DNA of 63,128 bases, filler included, from Collodictyon triciliatum (Eukaryota), in the NCBI GenBank assembly GCA_043381765.1. It is 9 parts of 9 records of this genome, joined end to end, with 100 filler letters (N's around TTAATTAATTAA, not from the genome) between each part and the next. Parts side by side here need not be neighbours in the genome. Positions count along the whole stretch, not along the records: positions 13,350 to 22,836 come from JBHJMP010004370.1; positions 22,937 to 29,511 come from JBHJMP010004371.1; 7 more parts are not named here. The stretch is one strand, 5' to 3'. Below are positions 22,491 to 42,954 of this stretch, piece by piece; position 1 is the stretch's first letter, and each line of letters begins with the position of its first letter. A model generated the notes under the pieces. The model had not been told where the DNA came from, ran no database searches, and saw only the letters and a list, made by a program, of their open reading frames with translations. The position numbers were made by a program, and so were the translations under genes.

Positions 22491-22937
22491 TTTGTTTTCG
22501 TTTGCCTCCCTTGTGACAGGGACGTAAAATGATTGAGAGGTTGGGTTGGCGTTGCAAGTGAATCCACATAAACCGTTTCAGGAACTTCCAACTTTATGGT
22601 TAAAAGAGGAGCTCGAAAGCAATAGCGAATTAAAATACAGTAAATAAAAAAAACCAGCACGACTTGAAACGAAAATAACAAATAGAGCTAGGGGATGTGT
22701 GTTGCCCGTAAGGTTTTCTCTCCCCCTCCCTTTTTTTAAACCAAAACAGCCTTCACCCTGCAAGCCGGACCACAGATTTGCAGGTGGTATCCAGAGAACA
22801 TACACGAGAAAAGAGAAAAGAGAAAAGAGAAAAGAGNNNNNNNNNNNNNNNNNNNNNNNNNNNNNNNNNNNNNNNNNNNNTTAATTAATTAANNNNNNNN
22901 NNNNNNNNNNNNNNNNNNNNNNNNNNNNNNNNNNNNT

Positions 22938-24080
22938 GGTGGAAGCACAATTCGTAATAATGTCAGCAATCCAAGTCAAACAATTCAGTTTATTGGAAGT
23001 ACAGGAGGCGCTACAGGTTACATACAGTTGTCATTCAATGATTCTAGTACAGGAACGGTAGCAAATTACAGGTTGGGTAATAACACAAACTGGCCAACTA
23101 CTGAAACTGTAATGAGTAGGCTAGCTGGTGGAACTGGAACAAATGAAATATTTGTAACTGAGCACGGGAATACGTATTTTAGATTTCTAGGGGCAACAGG
23201 TACAGGTGTTTCTTTACCGGCACGAGTTCAAAGGGTTGAGATTAATAATTCAGGGATGAGTATATCAGGAGACCTTACAGTGAGTGGAAATATATCAGGC
23301 ACAGTTACAGCGCCAACAGTAGCCAAAAAAACCGTGGTGATTGCATCTAATAGCAGTACAGCATACGTGTATAATTCAGGCAATACAGCTCCAGCTACAT
23401 TACTTATATCGAATAGTATACGATCACAAAAAAATATCACGCTGGGGAACATGGGCGCGTCATACGATGGCTTTGAATTTGAATTTATGTTAACGGGTGA
23501 CTTAAATAATTTTGGCGTTGCAGTGACTCTTTCGCTTGCCGGTTCATTTGTAAAAGTCAGGTCAGGTGCTATTGGTGTGGATGACTCAACAGCTGGACAG
23601 GTACATACATTTTCAAGACCGATGAATGAGTTTAGAATTACAGGTATGTTTGTTTGGAATGGTGGAACAAATCCGTACTGGGTTGTTATTGACAGAGGTG
23701 TTTATAAACAAAGAGCAACGAATACAAAATTCACGGGTGGCACTTTAACTATAGATAGAAACACACCTGAGGACGTTTTATTAACTCGTGCGACTGCTAC
23801 GACTGTTGATTTTAAAAATCTGGTTAGTTTTGGGGGTAGTCAAGAGGACTATAATGGATTTAATTTTTGGCTTTCTTTTACAAACGCGACAAGTGATGCT
23901 GTTAGTTTTACTAATAGCACTAGTGTATCAATGTTTATAATAGGAAACAGCGGTGTCCAGACTATTACAGCTGGGAGTACAGCAAGTATTGTTGCTGCAG
24001 GTCAACCAAGTACGTGTTTAAGGTGTGTTTTTCGGGATACTGCTCCGGGCGGGTTTGGATGGTTTGTATATGGTCGCTGA
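22938..24080 (+). CDS. Virus-like fibre/spike protein, 5'-truncated by the scaffold start
   Basis: Intronless, open from the scaffold edge, Gly/Thr/Ser/Asn-rich. Shaft-like ISGDLTVSGNISG, then two beta-rich modules ending PYWVVI and FGWFVY. Confidence 0.65.
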   Translation, partial: GGSTIRNNVSNPSQTIQFIGSTGGATGYIQLSFNDSSTGTVANYRLGNNTNWPTTETVMSRLAGGTGTNEIFVTEHGNTYFRFLGATGTGVSLPARVQRVEINNSGMSISGDLTVSGNISGTVTAPTVAKKTVVIASNSSTAYVYNSGNTAPATLLISNSIRSQKNITLGNMGASYDGFEFEFMLTGDLNNFGVAVTLSLAGSFVKVRSGAIGVDDSTAGQVHTFSRPMNEFRITGMFVWNGGTNPYWVVIDRGVYKQRATNTKFTGGTLTIDRNTPEDVLLTRATATTVDFKNLVSFGGSQEDYNGFNFWLSFTNATSDAVSFTNSTSVSMFIIGNSGVQTITAGSTASIVAAGQPSTCLRCVFRDTAPGGFGWFVYGR

Positions 24081-24100
24081 CTTTATTTCTTTTTTATTGT

Positions 24101-24265
24101 ATGGACCCGGTGTTAATTGTATCGTTGATCATTAACTTGTGTTTGATTGCTGAGCGTGCGATGAAGTATTATTTAAAACACGTTCGCAAGTCTCAGTGCT
24201 GTGGCAGCGTGATGGAAACGCGTGAGCCTAGTCCTGACCGTGAGCTTGAAAAAATAAATATCTAG
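24101..24265 (+). CDS. 54-aa protein with N-terminal hydrophobic helix and RKSQCCG motif, virus-like
   Basis: MDPVLIVSLIINLCLIAERAMKYYLKHVRKSQCCGSVMETREPSPDRELEKINI; starts 20 nt after the fibre-like ORF stop. Confidence 0.65.
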   Translation: MDPVLIVSLIINLCLIAERAMKYYLKHVRKSQCCGSVMETREPSPDRELEKINI

Positions 24266-24741
24266 AGTTGAAGACTGGCCCATTTTTTTATATACTTACC
24301 CCAAAATTTTGGGGAAAATATATCTATCGCGTATGTATTTTTTGTACATCGTGTAAAAATTCTGCTATGGAAAATAAACATTTTCCCCCAATTTTTTTGG
24401 GATTTTGGGGCCAGGGTTGGCGAGCGCAAACATACCGCATATGGTATCAGCAAATTAATTTAAATTATTTATATTCCACATTTGGTATATCCATATATGA
24501 TAGGAGAATCATCTAGAAAGGTACCGTACTCGCCATATATGGTAATAGAACCATCTAGAAACGTCTAGAAAGGTGTACTCGCCATATATGGTATGAAAGA
24601 CCAGGAAATAGGTGTATAAATAGGTCGAGATAAATAAATTTCTATCATTTATATATTACTATTAATATATAAATGATGACACACGGCAACAAAGAGAGAA
24701 ACGAAGATTATCTTCACTCACGTTGGCCTAGCTCTTCTTCT

Positions 24742-27700
24742 TCAATCAAATCTGCCTAACAAAACCCAACCTCGATAATTGCATTCATTCAGCAAATGTA
24801 CTTTACATGGACTGTCAAGTATGGAGACAAGGTTTTTAATTAAAATAGTTTCCCTCCTGAAGCAAATGGAAAGAAAGAAAAAATTGCGTCGGAGTTTATT
24901 CATAATTTTTTTTTTGCGAGTTGTGGAATAACGGAAAGCTGTTTGTGCCTTAATCTTATATTTGTCCCTCATTTCTCTTTCAATGAACAGACAATATGTC
25001 ACCTTCCTTGGCTGGTGTCCTTTCGAGCCATCTGCAATTAGGTGGTATAAGTATTATTTTGCTTTTTTGCTATATAGTTTAAATAAAAAGACTGAAAAGA
25101 AGGTAAAATAATGACTAGGAATTGAGGGGAATAGTACTCTGCCAATTGCCCGGAAGCAGCCAAGAGCAGACCCAAAAACGGTGGCGATGGACGAGTGGGC
25201 CGGCTCTTGAACTCGGGGTGGAATTGAGTCGCCACAAAATATCTAATTAGAAGAAGTAACTATCATGTAAATATGTGTAGATTCCAGCTTCATAGTCGAA
25301 TATTTGGCTTGTTGTGAGCTTAACATGTTTTCAGGGAGATGACATAAACGCGTAGATAGATGGACAAAAAGTATTAAATCAGGAGAATCCAGATACAATC
25401 CTCCTTAGTTCCCATGTTTGTGTCACATACGGATGATTCTCCAGCTCGACAATCTCCATTCGGAGGCGTGTATCATCGTGACCGACAAAGTGAAGTCCAG
25501 CTTTCTCCAGCTCTGTGAGATATTTTGTATTAACCTCGTAGCGGTGGCGATGACGCTCCTCGATAGTCTAAAAAAAATTCATTGTATTTCAGAGTCAATA
25601 AAAAAAATAAGAACATAGTGGGTTGTTTTACATGATATATTATCGTGATTAAATTAATTTAGATTTAACTTGGTCGTGTCTACCTTTTTATTGCCGTACA
25701 ATTTAGCGATGACAGAGTCTTGTCTTTGTATTATAGTTCGGCGGCTGCACAAATTTTACATATGCCATTATTTATTTATTTATTTTACAGGTTTGAAAAT
25801 ATTCCACCGTTTTCATGTTTATGATATATTTGTCCTGGTTGCTAGAATTTCAAGATGATACGAGAAAAGACTAGTTGAAACCTTCCGAGTCTCATCGTTC
25901 CCCCTAGATGGGTCATGGACACTTCAGGCATGGGTACTAAGCGACGCACCCGATGCAATACATTATTGAAGAACAATTGTAACGATATATTCATAATGAT
26001 GATACACTTGCATAATATACAAGAATGAAATAATTATGAGTTCCGTACTGATAACTTCATTTTTGCATTCCTTGGAGAACTCGGCGCTGTCTACTCCTTC
26101 GAGCTTAAGAACGTTTCTGACATAAAATCGAAGCTGTTTAAATATACAGAAATATATACTTAAAAAACGAATAATAATAATAATTGACTATGAATTCTAA
26201 TTTGTGGAGTTTTGTCGTGGAGACACAAAATAGATAAAAAAAAAAAATAGACGGTGAGCTTAATGCAAAAACCTGGCGAATTCGACCACAACCAACTGCA
26301 TCCCGAGGCAGATTCCAAGGTAAGGGATTTTATTTTCGCGGGCGTATTGAATAGCAAGGATTTTTCCTAAATATACGAATCTTGAGGATTCAGGCGGATA
26401 CAGGGCATAAAAAAAAAATATGCGTAAAATTATGAACCAAAGTGACGAAATAGTCTTGCAACATTAACCTTGAACTCCACGCTCACCAAAGCCCCCCGGA
26501 ACAATAATCCCGTGGGCGAGCTTCAAAAGTTCCCATGCTGATGTGTGTTTTTCTTGATTGAACTTCTCTTCCTCGTGCTTGGGGTCATGCGCCTCGTCCT
26601 TTTGAAGAGCGATACTGTATTGAAGGATTGTGTATACGTCCATTTAGAAAAAGGAAAAGTGTGAGGGAATATATGTGCCTGAATTCAAATCTGATGATGA
26701 AATAAAAGGCTATAAAACGACATAAAGAGTAAATCAACATTAAAACTCGGTTCTTTCAGTTCAACCTTTCAACCCAGAGAATTTCTAGCTTTCGGTGTAC
26801 TGCTAGAGCCGCATGTTGGATCGATCGAACAACAGATAGATAAGAGTCTGACAAATCTGTATATTTTCCAACAAGGGCAATTTTCACCTGAATGGGATGT
26901 GATAGGCAAGGAAAGAGTAATTCAGCACTAGATGCAATACACATTAAATAAATCATATATAAAAATACAGCACACAAATCAAGTTTTATTAAAAAAAATT
27001 ATTTATTTATTTGAGATAAATGAAAGCTTTATTACTGTCTCGGTTATCTGATCAGCACAGTCGGCAAGGCGAGTCCATTCGCTCAAAAGTGGATGTGGTG
27101 TTTGTGGCTGCAATATTGTTCCATGTATTGCATACAGTAAGCATATATAATCAGCCTTTTTTCTTTTTCTTTTCTTTATTTATGTGTATTTCCTCATTAT
27201 CTTTGTACATGGATGCACAAGAAGTTCAATTAAATTACGCCTTACTTTCTCATCAAGCATTTTAAAGTGTTTCAATATGATATCCGCTACATTTTGTTGC
27301 TTCAGAAGGAGTGGAACCTGTTCAAATAAGGCGTAATATACAAAGTTATGTATTGAAGTTGATTAGTTAATGATGCAATATTTATGATAATTTTCTCCTT
27401 TTTATTTTTCCTGTCTCTCCTACTCGATAGATATTGGAGACATCGTGCACACCGATGACATTATCAGTAGGGACATGGCAAAAAAGTCCGAGTTTTTCCT
27501 TCGTTCCCTGCTCTAAAGGCTGGCTACTTCGGCACATAAGAAGGTCAGGCGTCAATCCCAAGGCTCTCAGCTGCTGAACTCCTGTTATGAGACACCGTGG
27601 TTATATTTATGCAAAGGTATTCGAATATGAATCCAAAGTATATATACTATTTTGAGTGTTATGATTGCACTCAATTTGGGGGTAACCATAAGGTTATTAA

Positions 27701-29277
27701 ACTAGGAGCGCAAAGTATGAGAATTGAATAGGGTAAATGAAAACAAGTTCTGTTCAGCAAGTAAAATAAGTCGCTTTTTTTTTTGTTTCGAACCATGTTG
27801 CGTGGGCTTTGTCTTTTGCTCTCCAACAACACCGATAACAGGTATCAAACTCACATGCTGTGAAATGGGTAGGAAGGTTAATTGATAATAGGACTATACA
27901 TATCAAAGTCAATCAAAAATCACAAAAAAAAAATTTAACAATGAAAAAAGGATACCAAGTGGCAAATGTTTTGAGAACCGATGCCGAATTGGAATTGACG
28001 GAGAGCCTCAACAAAGGGCATGGATTCAATATCACCAACTGTCCCACCAAGTTCGATAACCTATATGTTCATTAGTGAGGATACATGGCGAAGCTAAAAA
28101 CAATCTCATATATGTCAAACCAGATGAATGAAAAACTCATGCATTGTGGCTTCATCACAGTCAATTTAATTTTAGCTCAGTATTCTGAACACTCACGCAA
28201 ACATCTGCAGGTGCTCCAGAATCATCAACAGGCATTTGTGATACTGTTTGAATCCATTGTTGGATGGCGTTTGTGATGTGGGGTACCTATGAGAGCATGT
28301 ATCTGCATGTAAAATTATAGTGCGACTATTGTTTGGCGAGTACTAAGGCCAGGCATCATCCAACAGCAAACTGGCCGCATGAAGTGTTGTTCAAAATAGT
28401 ATAATCAGTTCCAGTGAATTCGTTGCCAATTCCAATGAAAATGGAAGACATATATTCTCTGAGCAAACATAAAAATGTCCCCAACGCCATCTAATCAAGT
28501 TTCCTCTCTTTCTTATTTTATTTTATCTTTTCAAACACTAGCTCTTACCACTTGCACGGTCTTTCCAAGGTAATCGCCTCGTCTTTCCCGGGCTATAACC
28601 TGCTGATAAACTTTGCCGGTTGTCAAGTTGTTGTTGGCTGTCAAGGTGATATCCAAAAAGCGCTCATAGTTGCCCAAATCCAGGTCAACTTCGCCACCGT
28701 CATCAAGGACAAAGACCTAAAAGAAAAATCAGGACGCAAATTTTGATAACCAAAAAACGAACGTGCGCTAAAGTAAATAAAAAGATATATCCTGATAGGT
28801 TTGATACAACTTCCAAAAACAATAACAAAAAAATGCATGCACTGGTTTGCTTCCATACCAGTATACGCAAAAGAATAAACACATATAGACATCTATATTG
28901 TCACAAAAATAATTATATGAAGTATTTGAGACTTCTCCGTGCTCGAAAGGAGACATCAATCCAGCATCGAGATTGATGTATGGATCGATCTTTATCGCGG
29001 TGACTCGCAAGCCACGCATCTTGAGCAGAAGTCCGGTGCTGCTGGCAATCACACCTTTTCCAATGCCGCTGTTTCACATGCATTTGTTTACAAGTATACG
29101 ATGAAAACGAGAAAAAGAAATTTGGTTATTCTATTCTCAAACATATGCGCTTATTATCCTGAAAAGAAAAGTTTCTTGAGGCTTCTTCTGTCAGGATTGT
29201 GAACAGATATAGTATATGTGTAAAGATGTATACCTCATTACACCACCAGAGACAAGTACATATTTGATCTTCGACAT
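24742..29277 (-). CDS. CTPS: CTP synthase, multi-exon
   Basis: [99 protein letters not shown]. Confidence 0.98.
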
Positions 29278-29454
29278 TATCCTTGGACAATTGGTCGCTC
29301 TTGATAAAGCTACAAAAGATAATTCAGAGGTGTATAAAGGGAGAGCTTCTGCCAAGCGTTAAGCGTCGGAGTTTCCTCCCGTAGTTGAGCAAATCTTGGC
29401 ATCTTAATCTCACATTTTACTCGAGTTTTTTTGTTTTTTTTTTTGTTTTTTTTT

Positions 29455-29511
<57 letters not shown>

Positions 29512-40014: not shown

Positions 40015-42854
40015 ATGAAATCCGTTTCTTCGAGTACGCTTCCGCTGATAATCGGTATTTTGTGTTTTTTTTCTGCTGAAATTTGGTTTTATTGGCTAAA
40101 ATGATTTTATAGGAGTCCTTTTTTTGGGTCAATTTTTTTCTTGCCATGGCCAAGTTACTTCTGTGTATACTGTTGGAACAGGACACACAAAATCTGTTTG
40201 GAGTGTTGTTGTCACTCCTGATGATTCTCAGATAGTTTCTGCGGGGGGAGACGATAGGACAATAAAAATTTGGAATATTTCTGATGGAGCTTTGATTCGC
40301 ACTCTATTTGGGCACACCGACTGGGTTTGCACAGTTAATGTTACCCCTGATGGTACGAAAATTGTCTCTGGAAGCGACGATAGAACGATTAAAATTTGGA
40401 ATCTTTCTGATGGAGCTTTGATTCGCACGTTGAATGGGCATACACATGATGTTTATGGACTTGCAGTATCTAGAGATAATATCGTGTTGTACTCCGGAAG
40501 TGGTGATAGAACAATAAGATTTTGGAATATTTCTGATGGAGCTTTGATTCGCACATTGACTGGTCATACTGGTTATGTTCGGACTGTCATCACTCATCCA
40601 GATGGGTCAAAAATAATTTCTGGTAGTGATGACACAACAATAAAAATTTGGAATACTCATGATGGAACTCTTATCCAAACATTAATTGGACATTCAAATT
40701 ATGTTTGGAGTGTTGCTGTTACTCCTGATGGTTCAAAAATAGTATCTGGAAGCTATGATAAAACAATTAGGATTTGGGATTTTTCTCATGGAAATTTGAT
40801 TCGAACATGGAATGCTCATACTAACGAGATCACCAGCATTGCAGCCACTACTGACGGCTCCCAAATCATTTCTGCTAGCTATGACAAATCAATAAAAATA
40901 TGGAATCTCTTCGATGGAGCTTTGATTCGCACATTAACAGGTCACCTTGCAGCGATTATTAAAGTTACAATAACCTATAATTGCTTATTAATAGTGTCTG
41001 GGGGTGAGGACTCGACGGTGAAAGTCTGGGATTTATCCAAAGGAAATCTCATTTATTCGAGAGGCTCCAAAATTTCAAGCATTGCTTCGTCTCAAACAAA
41101 GTCCATTTTCGTCTCTGGGCACTCAGACAATATCATAAGAATCTGGAACTTGAATAATGGAGATTTAGTTCGCTCATTAACTGGGCATACAGATGTTTTA
41201 CAGGCAGTGGCAGTGAACCCAGACAGTTCAAAAATTGTCTCCGGAAGTGTGGACAAGACAATCAAAGTGTGGAGTATTGATGATGGAAGAATAGTTCAAA
41301 ATATTCAAGTGCACACTGATTCAGTAAATTGTGTCGCCATCACTCAAGATGGAACGAAAATCGTCTCTGGAAGCAGCGACAAAACAATCAAAATTACCAG
41401 CATATCAGATGGAACTTTGATAAGAACATTCAGCGGACATACTGGAATCGTTAACAGTGTAGCTTTGACCCCTGATAGCTCAATAATTGTGTCAGGAAGT
41501 GCTGATAAAATAATTAAGGTGTGGAATATCAACGACGGAACAGTAGTTCAAAATATTCAAGTGCACACAGATTCAGTAAATTGTGTCGCCATCACGCAAG
41601 ATGGAACGAAAATCGTCTCTGGAAGTAGCGACAAAACAATCAAACTTACCAGCATATCAGATGGAGATTTGATAAGAACTTTCAGCGGACATACTGGAAT
41701 CGTCAAAACAGTTGTCATTTCTCCAGATACTTCAAAAATTATCTCTGGAAGCAACGATAATACAATAAGAATGTGGAATTATTCAAATGGAGTGACAATT
41801 CACATTTTTTTCATAACATTTTGCTACAATTAATGATTTTTCAATTCTGTCTGATGGAACAAAATTTCTCTCTGCAAGTGAAGACGCATTTATTAAAATG
41901 TGGAATTTTCCTGATTTCAGTTTGATTTTGACAGTTTCAGGTCACACAAGTTCGGTTAATAGCGTTAGTTTGAGCCCAGATAGAACTAAAATCGTATCAG
42001 GAGGTAGCGACAAAACAATACGAATTTGGAATTATGCTGATGGAACCCAGGCGCTTTCAATAAACGCCCATACGAGTACCGTCAATAGTATTGTTATTTC
42101 CCGTGATGGAACAAAAATTGTGCCTGGAAGTAGTGATAATGCTATCAAAATGTGGAATTTCTCGGATGGTATATTATTGAAAACTTTTAGTGGCCATACT
42201 GCAGCTGTTCGAAGCGTTGCTATATCATCAGATAGTTCTGTTATTGTATCAGGAGGTGATGATATGAATGTCAACGTTTGGGGAGTTTTGGACGGAAACT
42301 TGATACAAAGCATAGTTGGGCATACAAAAGGGGTGAATGCTGTTTTCATCACTCCAGACAACAGCAAAATTATATCAGGTAGTGCTGATTTTTCAATAAA
42401 ATTATGGACTTTATCGGATGGAGTGTTGATAAGAACTATCACTGGTCACGGAAACTCTGTCAGGTGTGTCATTACCTCTCCAGATGGAACGAGAATCATC
42501 TCTGGAAGCAGTGATAACACAATCAAAATTTGGAATATGCTGGATGGCGTGTTAATTCGAACTCTCTTTGGACACTCCAGCTCAATAAATAGCATTTCAA
42601 TACCACCTGATGGCACAAAATTGTATTCTGGAAGCAGTGATAAATCAGTCAGAATATGGACAATATCAGATGGGAGAGAAATTCGACCGCTTTTGAGTCA
42701 CATTGATTCTGTCAATAGTGTTGTTATTGCACCTGACTCAAAAATGATTTCAGCGAGCACTGACAGATTTATCAAAGTCTGGAGTCCATGCCAAGGAGGA
42801 TATTTTTACAACGAGCTGTCAAACACTTGCGAAAAATGTCCTGCTGGCTCCTAC
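40015..42854 (+). CDS. Signal peptide + 21 WD40 repeats + start of Cys-rich (GCC2/GCC3, ephrin-receptor-like) repeat; frameshift near 41805-41817; 3'-truncated
   Basis: ATG 40015 and GT-AG intron 40055-40112 give MKSVSSSTLPLIIGVLFLGQFFSCHG-QVTS. 21 GH..W units were counted. The ORF ends CQGGYFYNELSNTCEKCPAGSY at the scaffold edge. Confidence 0.85.
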
Positions 42855-42954
42855 NNNNNNNNNNNNNNNNNNNNNNNNNNNNNNNNNNNNNNNNNNNNTT
42901 AATTAATTAANNNNNNNNNNNNNNNNNNNNNNNNNNNNNNNNNNNNNNNNNNNN

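Follow-up and report, generated by a model that had tools for sequence, protein, structure and literature searches.

A candidate right-hand end of an endogenous Polinton-like virus beside the CTP synthase gene of Collodictyon triciliatum

Protist genomes commonly contain integrated small DNA viruses, which may protect the host from giant viruses; the virophage mavirus, for instance, is reportedly integrated in the genome of the protist Cafeteria. Viral genome ends differ in kind—hairpin-type telomeres occur in poxviruses and chloroviruses, and Polintons have protein-primed inverted repeats. Among the closest described systems, endogenous Polinton-like viruses of protists encode phage-like fibres, Tlr6f (PF19058), and Dam methylases, according to the accessible part of PMC12220804, which also reports that endogenous virophages were not detected in cryptophyte genomes. 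Tlr6f itself, according to PMC4642659, is conserved across almost all Polinton-like viruses and also in several virophages, in many giant viruses, and in some phages, and a 2026 preprint delineates a virus subgroup whose consistently annotated genes are limited to those for capsid, ATPase, Tlr6F, and methylase. Here, we describe a 63,128-base stretch of DNA from the eukaryote Collodictyon triciliatum (the window), in which one scaffold, at positions 22937–29511, opens with a 1.75-kb segment carrying two open reading frames (ORFs) and a non-coding tract, and runs on into a host CTP synthase gene. With slightly better than even confidence, we take this segment for the right-hand end of a Polinton-like virus endogenous to a freshwater eukaryote, joined to host DNA downstream of CTP synthase.

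The segment and its surroundings are laid out as follows, with positions counted along the window:

22938–24080, plus strand: C-terminal part of a fibre/spike-like ORF, 380 codons plus stop, an open frame with no intron
24081–24100, no strand: AT-rich spacer of 20 nucleotides between the two ORFs
24101–24265, plus strand: 54-amino-acid ORF, which adjoins the fibre gene in relatives as well
24266–24682, no strand: structured non-coding tract of 417 nucleotides
24290–24323 and 24380–24396: palindromes in the tract
24491–24613: three repeat units of 42–49 nucleotides in the tract, each starting CCATATATG(G/A)TA
24644–24677, no strand: AT-rich palindrome, perfect over 15+15 nucleotides, with a 4-nucleotide centre
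24682/24683, no strand: most likely virus-host join, between the last base common to a related viral contig (from metagenome run X5) and the first differing base
24683–24979, minus strand: probably host flanking DNA and the CTP synthase 3' untranslated region, with AATAAA near 24896–24901
24980–29355, minus strand: complete, intron-bearing CTP synthase gene, with at least eight exon-like ORFs by eye, ending ...FHPEFKSRP...

Searching 1.84 billion representative proteins with HMMER, we recovered 12 representatives related to the fibre-like ORF (423–1048 amino acids, all at E<=1e-30), every one of them from metagenome or Logan assemblies and none with an informative name or a Pfam domain. The C-terminus of the ORF aligns with the C-termini of full-length homologues; complete proteins of the family span 567–1048 amino acids, which leaves the window with the C-terminal 36–67% of the gene, its 5' part missing because the scaffold starts at 22937. 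The family is mosaic, with modules exchanged among relatives—residues 1–142 share 75–77% identity with a middle segment of P0006, P0018, P0019, and P0014, residues 125–378 share 89% identity with the C-terminus of P0007 and P0020, and residues 107–380 share 81% identity with the C-terminus of P0008, while in P0006 an additional module of about 110 amino acids separates the two window-like parts. We also compared both ORFs with their counterparts on L002, one of three related metagenome contigs from ENA (L001–L003, each <=3.3 kb). The ratio of nonsynonymous to synonymous substitution rates (dN/dS) was 0.21 for the fibre-like ORF (252 codons) and 0.11 for the 54-amino-acid ORF (54 codons, 87% identity), and both are under purifying selection. 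Because the fibre family is so small and confined to metagenomes, because it is mosaic, and because purifying selection acts on both ORFs, the sequence evidence indicates that the 1.75-kb segment is viral and not host DNA.

Curated families offered no match above threshold for the fibre-like ORF: the scores for CBM_6 (15.9 bits, cut-off 28.9), gp37_trimer (13.4 bits, cut-off 21.7), and DUF5907 (10.5 bits, cut-off 27) all fell short, and none of nine full-length relatives matched any curated family at E<=0.01. With the N-terminal 130 residues of P0006 as the query, the matches comprised the same family and proteins sharing an LP..G..GKFL.TNG repeat (P0035 and P0038), with no named virus among them. 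A further homologue, P0010, lies on an 83,121-base contig and has no start methionine, its first residue being L; this suggests that the gene is cut at the contig end, like the window copy, and the contig may contain another virus-host junction like the one described here. Shorter metagenome contigs encode P0013 (24.9 kb), P0015 (15.4 kb), P0032 (14.8 kb), P0008 (13.6 kb), and P0020 (10.3 kb).

To describe the predicted fold, we used an AlphaFold model built from 17 aligned sequences, with a mean predicted local distance difference test (pLDDT) score of 68; a model from five sequences was discarded (pLDDT 49). The model is almost all beta, with pLDDT of 75–92 over most of residues 130–380 and two 10-residue blocks at 59–66; for residues 1–100, where pLDDT is below 50, we make no structural claim. 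Two beta-sandwich domains are predicted, at residues 126–256 and 258–380. When the model was compared with 48,161 chains using VIA-align, the top six matches were all phage proteins (Z 9.6–6.1), and the next match scored Z 5.3:

Z 9.6: capsid spike of Pseudomonas phage Pa223 (9ny6), root-mean-square deviation (rmsd) 2.5 Å over 95 residues
Z 9.1: KP1 baseplate protein
Z 8.8, twice: N-terminal domains of CBA120 TSP4 (7rfv/7rej)
Z 7.7: Solidus tailspike (24qj)
Z 6.1: chaperone-substrate complex 6o38, which we take to be a phage tail-fibre assembly complex

Among the viral models of BFVD, 122 matched at E<=1e-3, and most of the best 50 come from tailed phages, as uncharacterised or tail-fibre proteins, while four come from Marseillevirus; the feature neighbours of the ORF in the Atlas are phage-type proteins as well. 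Foldseek against the PDB gave low TM-scores (0.12–0.21). Together with the exchange of modules, the model supports a fibre-like assignment at the level of fold and modularity.

The 54-amino-acid ORF, which combines a hydrophobic N-terminal stretch (by eye) with a basic segment and a CCGS motif, matches no Pfam or PHROG family and is a putative small membrane protein gene. Beyond it, the tract at 24266–24682 holds no ORF that we judged credible and instead contains eight inverted-repeat pairs in addition to the three repeat units. The word CCATATATGGTA, with at most one mismatch, occurs three times, always within the tract, against 0.23 occurrences expected in the whole window, and the tract folded as single-stranded DNA reaches z = -5.9, with 0 of 100 shuffles folding as well. 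An initial annotation made from the sequence alone had described an intronless, beta-rich, fibre-like ORF, a 54-amino-acid ORF 20 nucleotides further on, and a repeat-rich non-coding tract after both; the open frame, the predicted fold with its phage spike and tailspike matches, the spacer, and the repeats uphold that description in each part. Within the repeat units, TCTAGA occurs three times (24505–24574), a motif presumably resembling TCTA, the motif of late promoters in giant viruses of the mimivirus type and in their virophages. The other eight scaffolds of the window contain no further copy of the tract.

Contigs from environmental runs tie the tract to the virus. One contig of run X2 carries the 3' end of a Tlr6F-like gene joined to position 24271 onward, and the tract is therefore part of the virus. 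A contig of run X1 covers 24264–24438 without differences, and further metagenome contigs cover 24268–24343, 24415–24482, and 24575–24630. Arrangements to the left of the tract vary: the X1 contigs, identical to the tract, are unlike the window left of 24264; similarity between the window and L002 ends exactly at the stop codon of the 54-amino-acid ORF; and positions 24263–24271 thus mark a variable module boundary. In the window, the 54-amino-acid ORF leads directly into the tract; in X2, a Tlr6F-like gene precedes it; and in L002, Tlr6F is followed by Dam, with no tract.

At its right-hand end, the tract closes with the AT-rich palindrome. The X5 contig matches the window up to 24682 and then continues as the reverse complement of 24610–24638 (26 of 29 letters, by eye); in this relative, the palindrome at 24644–24677 lies at the heart of a longer, imperfect one whose arms reach at least 49 nucleotides. 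Five letters, 24678–24682, are common to the window and X5 and lie outside the symmetry, which argues against a simple fold-back artefact. The window thus most likely leaves viral sequence at 24682/24683, inside the second palindrome arm, where the end would have been cut or truncated. The initial annotation had proposed the right terminus of an undegraded integrated virus; its viral nature and the undegraded state of its ORFs stand, and similarity stops within five nucleotides of the end that it claimed, but since the relative continues past 24682, this end may be truncated rather than an intact terminus.

On the other side of the join, the scaffold continues without any N from the viral part through the complete CTP synthase gene. 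Exon translations from 25038–25235 (E 2.4e-10, at residues 523–555 of human CTPS2) and 26464–26643 (E 6.3e-6) match solved CTP synthases, in both cases in the C-terminal glutamine amidotransferase domain; the exon-like translation of 25842–25994 had no match to solved structures, and the other exon-like ORFs, to about 29355, are CTP-synthase-like by eye. An RNA contig from run X12 shows the splicing of a 188-nucleotide intron (25243–25430, GT..AG on the minus strand), with 25242 joined to 25431. As this run is an aquaculture metatranscriptome and its contig shows no differences in the exons flanking the intron, the source organism or a very close relative appears to be active in that sample. 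The convergent, intron-bearing host gene of the initial annotation is thereby confirmed on the same scaffold, but the proposed distance of about 65 bp between its stop codon and the element is not confirmed: the ORF stopping at 24742 has no CTP-synthase-like sequence, the last recognisable exon ends at or before 25038–25137, and according to three simple gene models (by eye) the stop more likely lies 300–360 nucleotides from 24682, at 25038, 24994, or 24980.

The explanation that best survives beside our own concerns the join itself, namely that a free or episomal virus was sequenced together with the host and that its linear palindromic end was misjoined to the 3' flank of CTP synthase. We regard such an assembly chimera as a serious possibility, if clearly a minority one. 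The viral part stops exactly at a palindrome, a natural contig end, and the assembly, whose scaffolds measure about 6.6 kb, is highly fragmented. Set against this, there is no N across the join, and neither side is of low complexity, so that no obvious cause for a false overlap presents itself; endogenous copies of such viruses are also common in protists, according to the accessible part of PMC12220804. Of 24 listed sequencing runs, none contains half or more of the sequence words searched for; the 20 that contain some of them, with shares of 0.05–0.16, are all environmental metagenomes or metatranscriptomes, mostly from freshwater or lake water, or are unlabelled. Among the four runs examined, the X2 run holds both a viral piece without differences (22947–23117) and a host piece without base differences (24901–25081, with six gaps), a second such host piece occurs in X5 (24992–25142), and more diverged contigs cover much of the remainder of 22937–24682. 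Among the pieces listed for these four runs, none covers 24717–24894, which says nothing either way on the join.

Misjoining does occur in related short-read contigs. In L001 (1–800 and 3190–3300), the fibre gene is fused in frame to nrdR and to the N-terminal part of an unrelated ORF that is apparently bacterial, and the contig ends in Illumina adapter; L002 (2310–2359) also ends in adapter sequence. In L003 (245–1287), the fibre gene switches to GC-rich bacterial sequence encoding a PEP-CTERM-like tail.

As to the kind of virus, the gene order in L002 is fibre gene, 54-amino-acid ORF, Tlr6F-like gene (98 amino acids), and D12 Dam methylase gene (E 1.5e-9), with spacers of 6–25 nucleotides. 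Four of seven relatives of the Tlr6F-like protein match Pfam DUF5754 (best E 3.6e-4), and in the Atlas 26 of its 30 neighbours carry DUF5754, the nearest cluster being mostly Preplasmiviricota. No A32/FtsK-type packaging ATPase, integrase, or replication module was found in 22937–24682 or in L001–L003. With no hallmark gene, a Polinton-like virus is therefore the most probable class rather than a demonstrated one.

A number of observations weigh against our reading as a whole. Capsid, ATPase, polymerase, and integrase genes are not on the scaffold, and the window copy itself has no Tlr6F gene. The Pfam score of the Tlr6F-like protein is below threshold (20.7 bits, cut-off 27.4), four of seven members also match the PHROG family phrog_7595, and its Atlas neighbours include tailed-phage and giant-virus clusters. 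Both by structure and by features, the fibre has phage proteins as its nearest neighbours. Pattern scans of IMG/VR with the fibre, fibre relatives and alignments, the 54-amino-acid ORF, and the Tlr6F-like protein returned no relative, and the lineage therefore cannot be tied to a classified virus. At the join, none of the listed pieces from the four metagenome runs bridges 24683–24900, so that a chimeric join is possible, and of the three related contigs from ENA, two (L001 and L003) are themselves chimeric, with bacterial DNA as the other part. Finally, the sequence of the X5 relative runs on past 24682, and a true genome terminus is not required. We rejected one apparent lead, L004, which was the only IMG/VR contig matching an 18-mer of the tract: the contig is 54 kb long, the match falls inside one of its ORFs, and chance alone predicts about one match of this kind.

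The explanation that we propose is that the insert would be the right end of a small double-stranded DNA virus, most likely Polinton-like, of the phylum Preplasmiviricota or near it, and would sit in host DNA some 200–300 nucleotides downstream of the CTP synthase gene. What the segment carries is the distal half, for host recognition, of a modular fibre or spike of the virion, together with a small gene for a putative membrane protein and an end region that is conserved, non-coding, and highly structured. The fibre may be attached to the capsid vertex through the missing N-terminal module, with its shuffled C-terminal beta-sandwich modules binding the host surface, and the non-coding tract may serve as a genome-end, replication, or packaging region that closes with the palindrome. 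Since the insert ends 22 nucleotides past the palindrome centre, this copy was presumably cut there by integration or truncated. The assembly break inside the fibre gene could arise because the gene is variable or repeated in the genome.

That the host genome instead took up a piece of a giant virus (Nucleocytoviricota), and not a small Polinton-like virus, seems to us unlikely. According to PMC12085832, the annotation of CpV-BQ1, a giant virus from fresh water, includes DUF5754/Tlr6F. The four Marseillevirus proteins among the best 50 structural matches in BFVD, and the 83-kb contig that carries P0010, point the same way, yet full-length fibre relatives with an intact N-terminus lie on contigs of <=24.9 kb, and the cluster nearest to the Tlr6F-like protein in the Atlas is mostly Preplasmiviricota. 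IMG/VR also holds giant-virus contigs, and the protein pattern scans found no relative there.

We think it decidedly unlikely that the segment belongs to an unclassified lineage of small freshwater eukaryotic viruses, missing from IMG/VR and from phage records in our scans, whose linear genome would close in a long imperfect palindrome as a hairpin-type telomere and not in protein-primed inverted repeats. An opened hairpin would then have been captured by host DNA repair with no integrase involved, and the join 22 nucleotides past the palindrome centre would record this event.

We hold it to be improbable that the segment is contaminant DNA from a phage or bacterium, brought in by misassembly or by transfer to the eukaryote. 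Such an origin would account for the mostly tailed-phage neighbours of the fibre in structure and in the Atlas, for the phrog_7595 matches among the relatives of the Tlr6F-like protein, and for the LP..G..GKFL.TNG repeat shared by two uncultured Caudovirales records. That repeat, at the N-terminus of P0006, is however all that this protein shares with phage records (a 13% match, to those two records), and neither the C-terminal 380 amino acids of the fibre nor the Tlr6F-like protein has a relative among 50,697 phage records. A search of 185,579 prokaryote species, each represented by one genome, found no fibre relative, and the segment is linked to an intron-bearing gene. Sigma-70 promoter-like sites are not enriched (6 against 6.3 expected), nor are terminator-like sites (1 against 1.2). 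The only Tlr6F-like match in the prokaryote collection (37% identity) lies on L005, a 29.5-kb contig labelled as a metagenome-assembled genome (MAG) of Candidatus Dependentiae, beside a gene for a poxvirus A22-type resolvase, a eukaryotic-virus gene. Over positions 1–20192 of its 29,526 bases, this contig encodes the resolvase (E 6.4e-14), a D12 Dam methylase (E 1.2e-13), and a P-loop NTPase. Four further ORFs of 582–784 amino acids have no family match, its large ORFs are unrelated to the fibre family by BLAST, and the 582-amino-acid ORF, a possible capsid gene, has no match in the PDB or NCBIfam. Judged by this gene content, L005 resembles a small DNA virus of eukaryotes that was binned with a bacterial MAG.

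Least probable of all, and by our estimate very much so, is a domesticated host gene of viral origin that now serves the cell: both ORFs are intact, and identical viral pieces occur in lakes that also hold host pieces, but the viral non-coding end is retained, the gene order is as in related viral contigs, the fibre ORF has no intron beside an intron-rich neighbour, and the purifying selection was measured between viral lineages and not within the host.

The layout of the window bears on how the scaffold came to begin where it does. Nine scaffolds are chained by N44-TTAATTAATTAA-N44 spacers, most of them 6.57–6.58 kb long, with two exceptions of 9.5 and 6.8 kb. A homopolymer or microsatellite forms 15 of the 18 scaffold ends, the other three being at 6677, 22937, and 42854; the left end of the scaffold at 22937–29511 interrupts coding sequence, that of the fibre-like ORF, just as the initial annotation had remarked in setting this break apart from most others. 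We considered whether 22937 might be a cut of fixed-length sampling and rejected this, as the pieces are whole scaffolds with microsatellite ends. Elsewhere in the window, at 40124–42902, two long intronless ORFs of 569 and 334 amino acids contain many WD40-type repeats, the second of them interrupted by another of the three non-microsatellite ends. A search of the whole window against Rfam gave no match.

One more integrated copy of a protist virus would be unsurprising in itself. What is new is, first, a fibre family annotated nowhere, in which modules are exchanged in the manner of phage receptor-binding proteins, and which may offer a handle on host recognition by freshwater eukaryotic viruses; and second, the tie between this metagenome-only family and a eukaryotic host scaffold, the first such link. 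The truncated palindromic end, in turn, could show how the genome ends of this lineage are built and how the chromosome was entered.

Compared with known systems, the locus most resembles endogenous Polinton-like viruses of protists such as those of cryptophytes, Paulinella, and Tetraselmis (PMC12220804, PMC9356565, PMC4642659): like them, it has compact intronless genes in a eukaryotic scaffold, a long modular phage-like fibre, a repeat-rich non-coding end, and a freshwater setting, with Tlr6F-like and Dam genes in its relatives. It departs from them in that the window shows one end only and no capsid, ATPase, replication, or integrase gene. Its fibre has no Peptidase_S74 chaperone, laminin G_3, collagen, or PTR, unlike the Polinton-like virus fibres in the available part of PMC12220804, and its end is a palindrome with the second arm cut off rather than a demonstrated terminal inverted repeat. 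With integrated virophages such as mavirus it would share the position of a small double-stranded DNA virus beside host genes, but no virophage-type gene is seen in the segment, and nothing favours a virophage over a Polinton-like virus. From the beta-sandwich domains of phage tailspikes and fibres (9ny6, 7rfv/7rej, and 24qj), the fibre differs in sequence (identity of only 9–13%, and no Pfam family at threshold) and in its eukaryotic genomic context, whereas both of its predicted C-terminal domains superpose on them (rmsd 2.5–2.8 Å over 90–97 residues) and, as in those phage proteins, modules are shuffled among the relatives.

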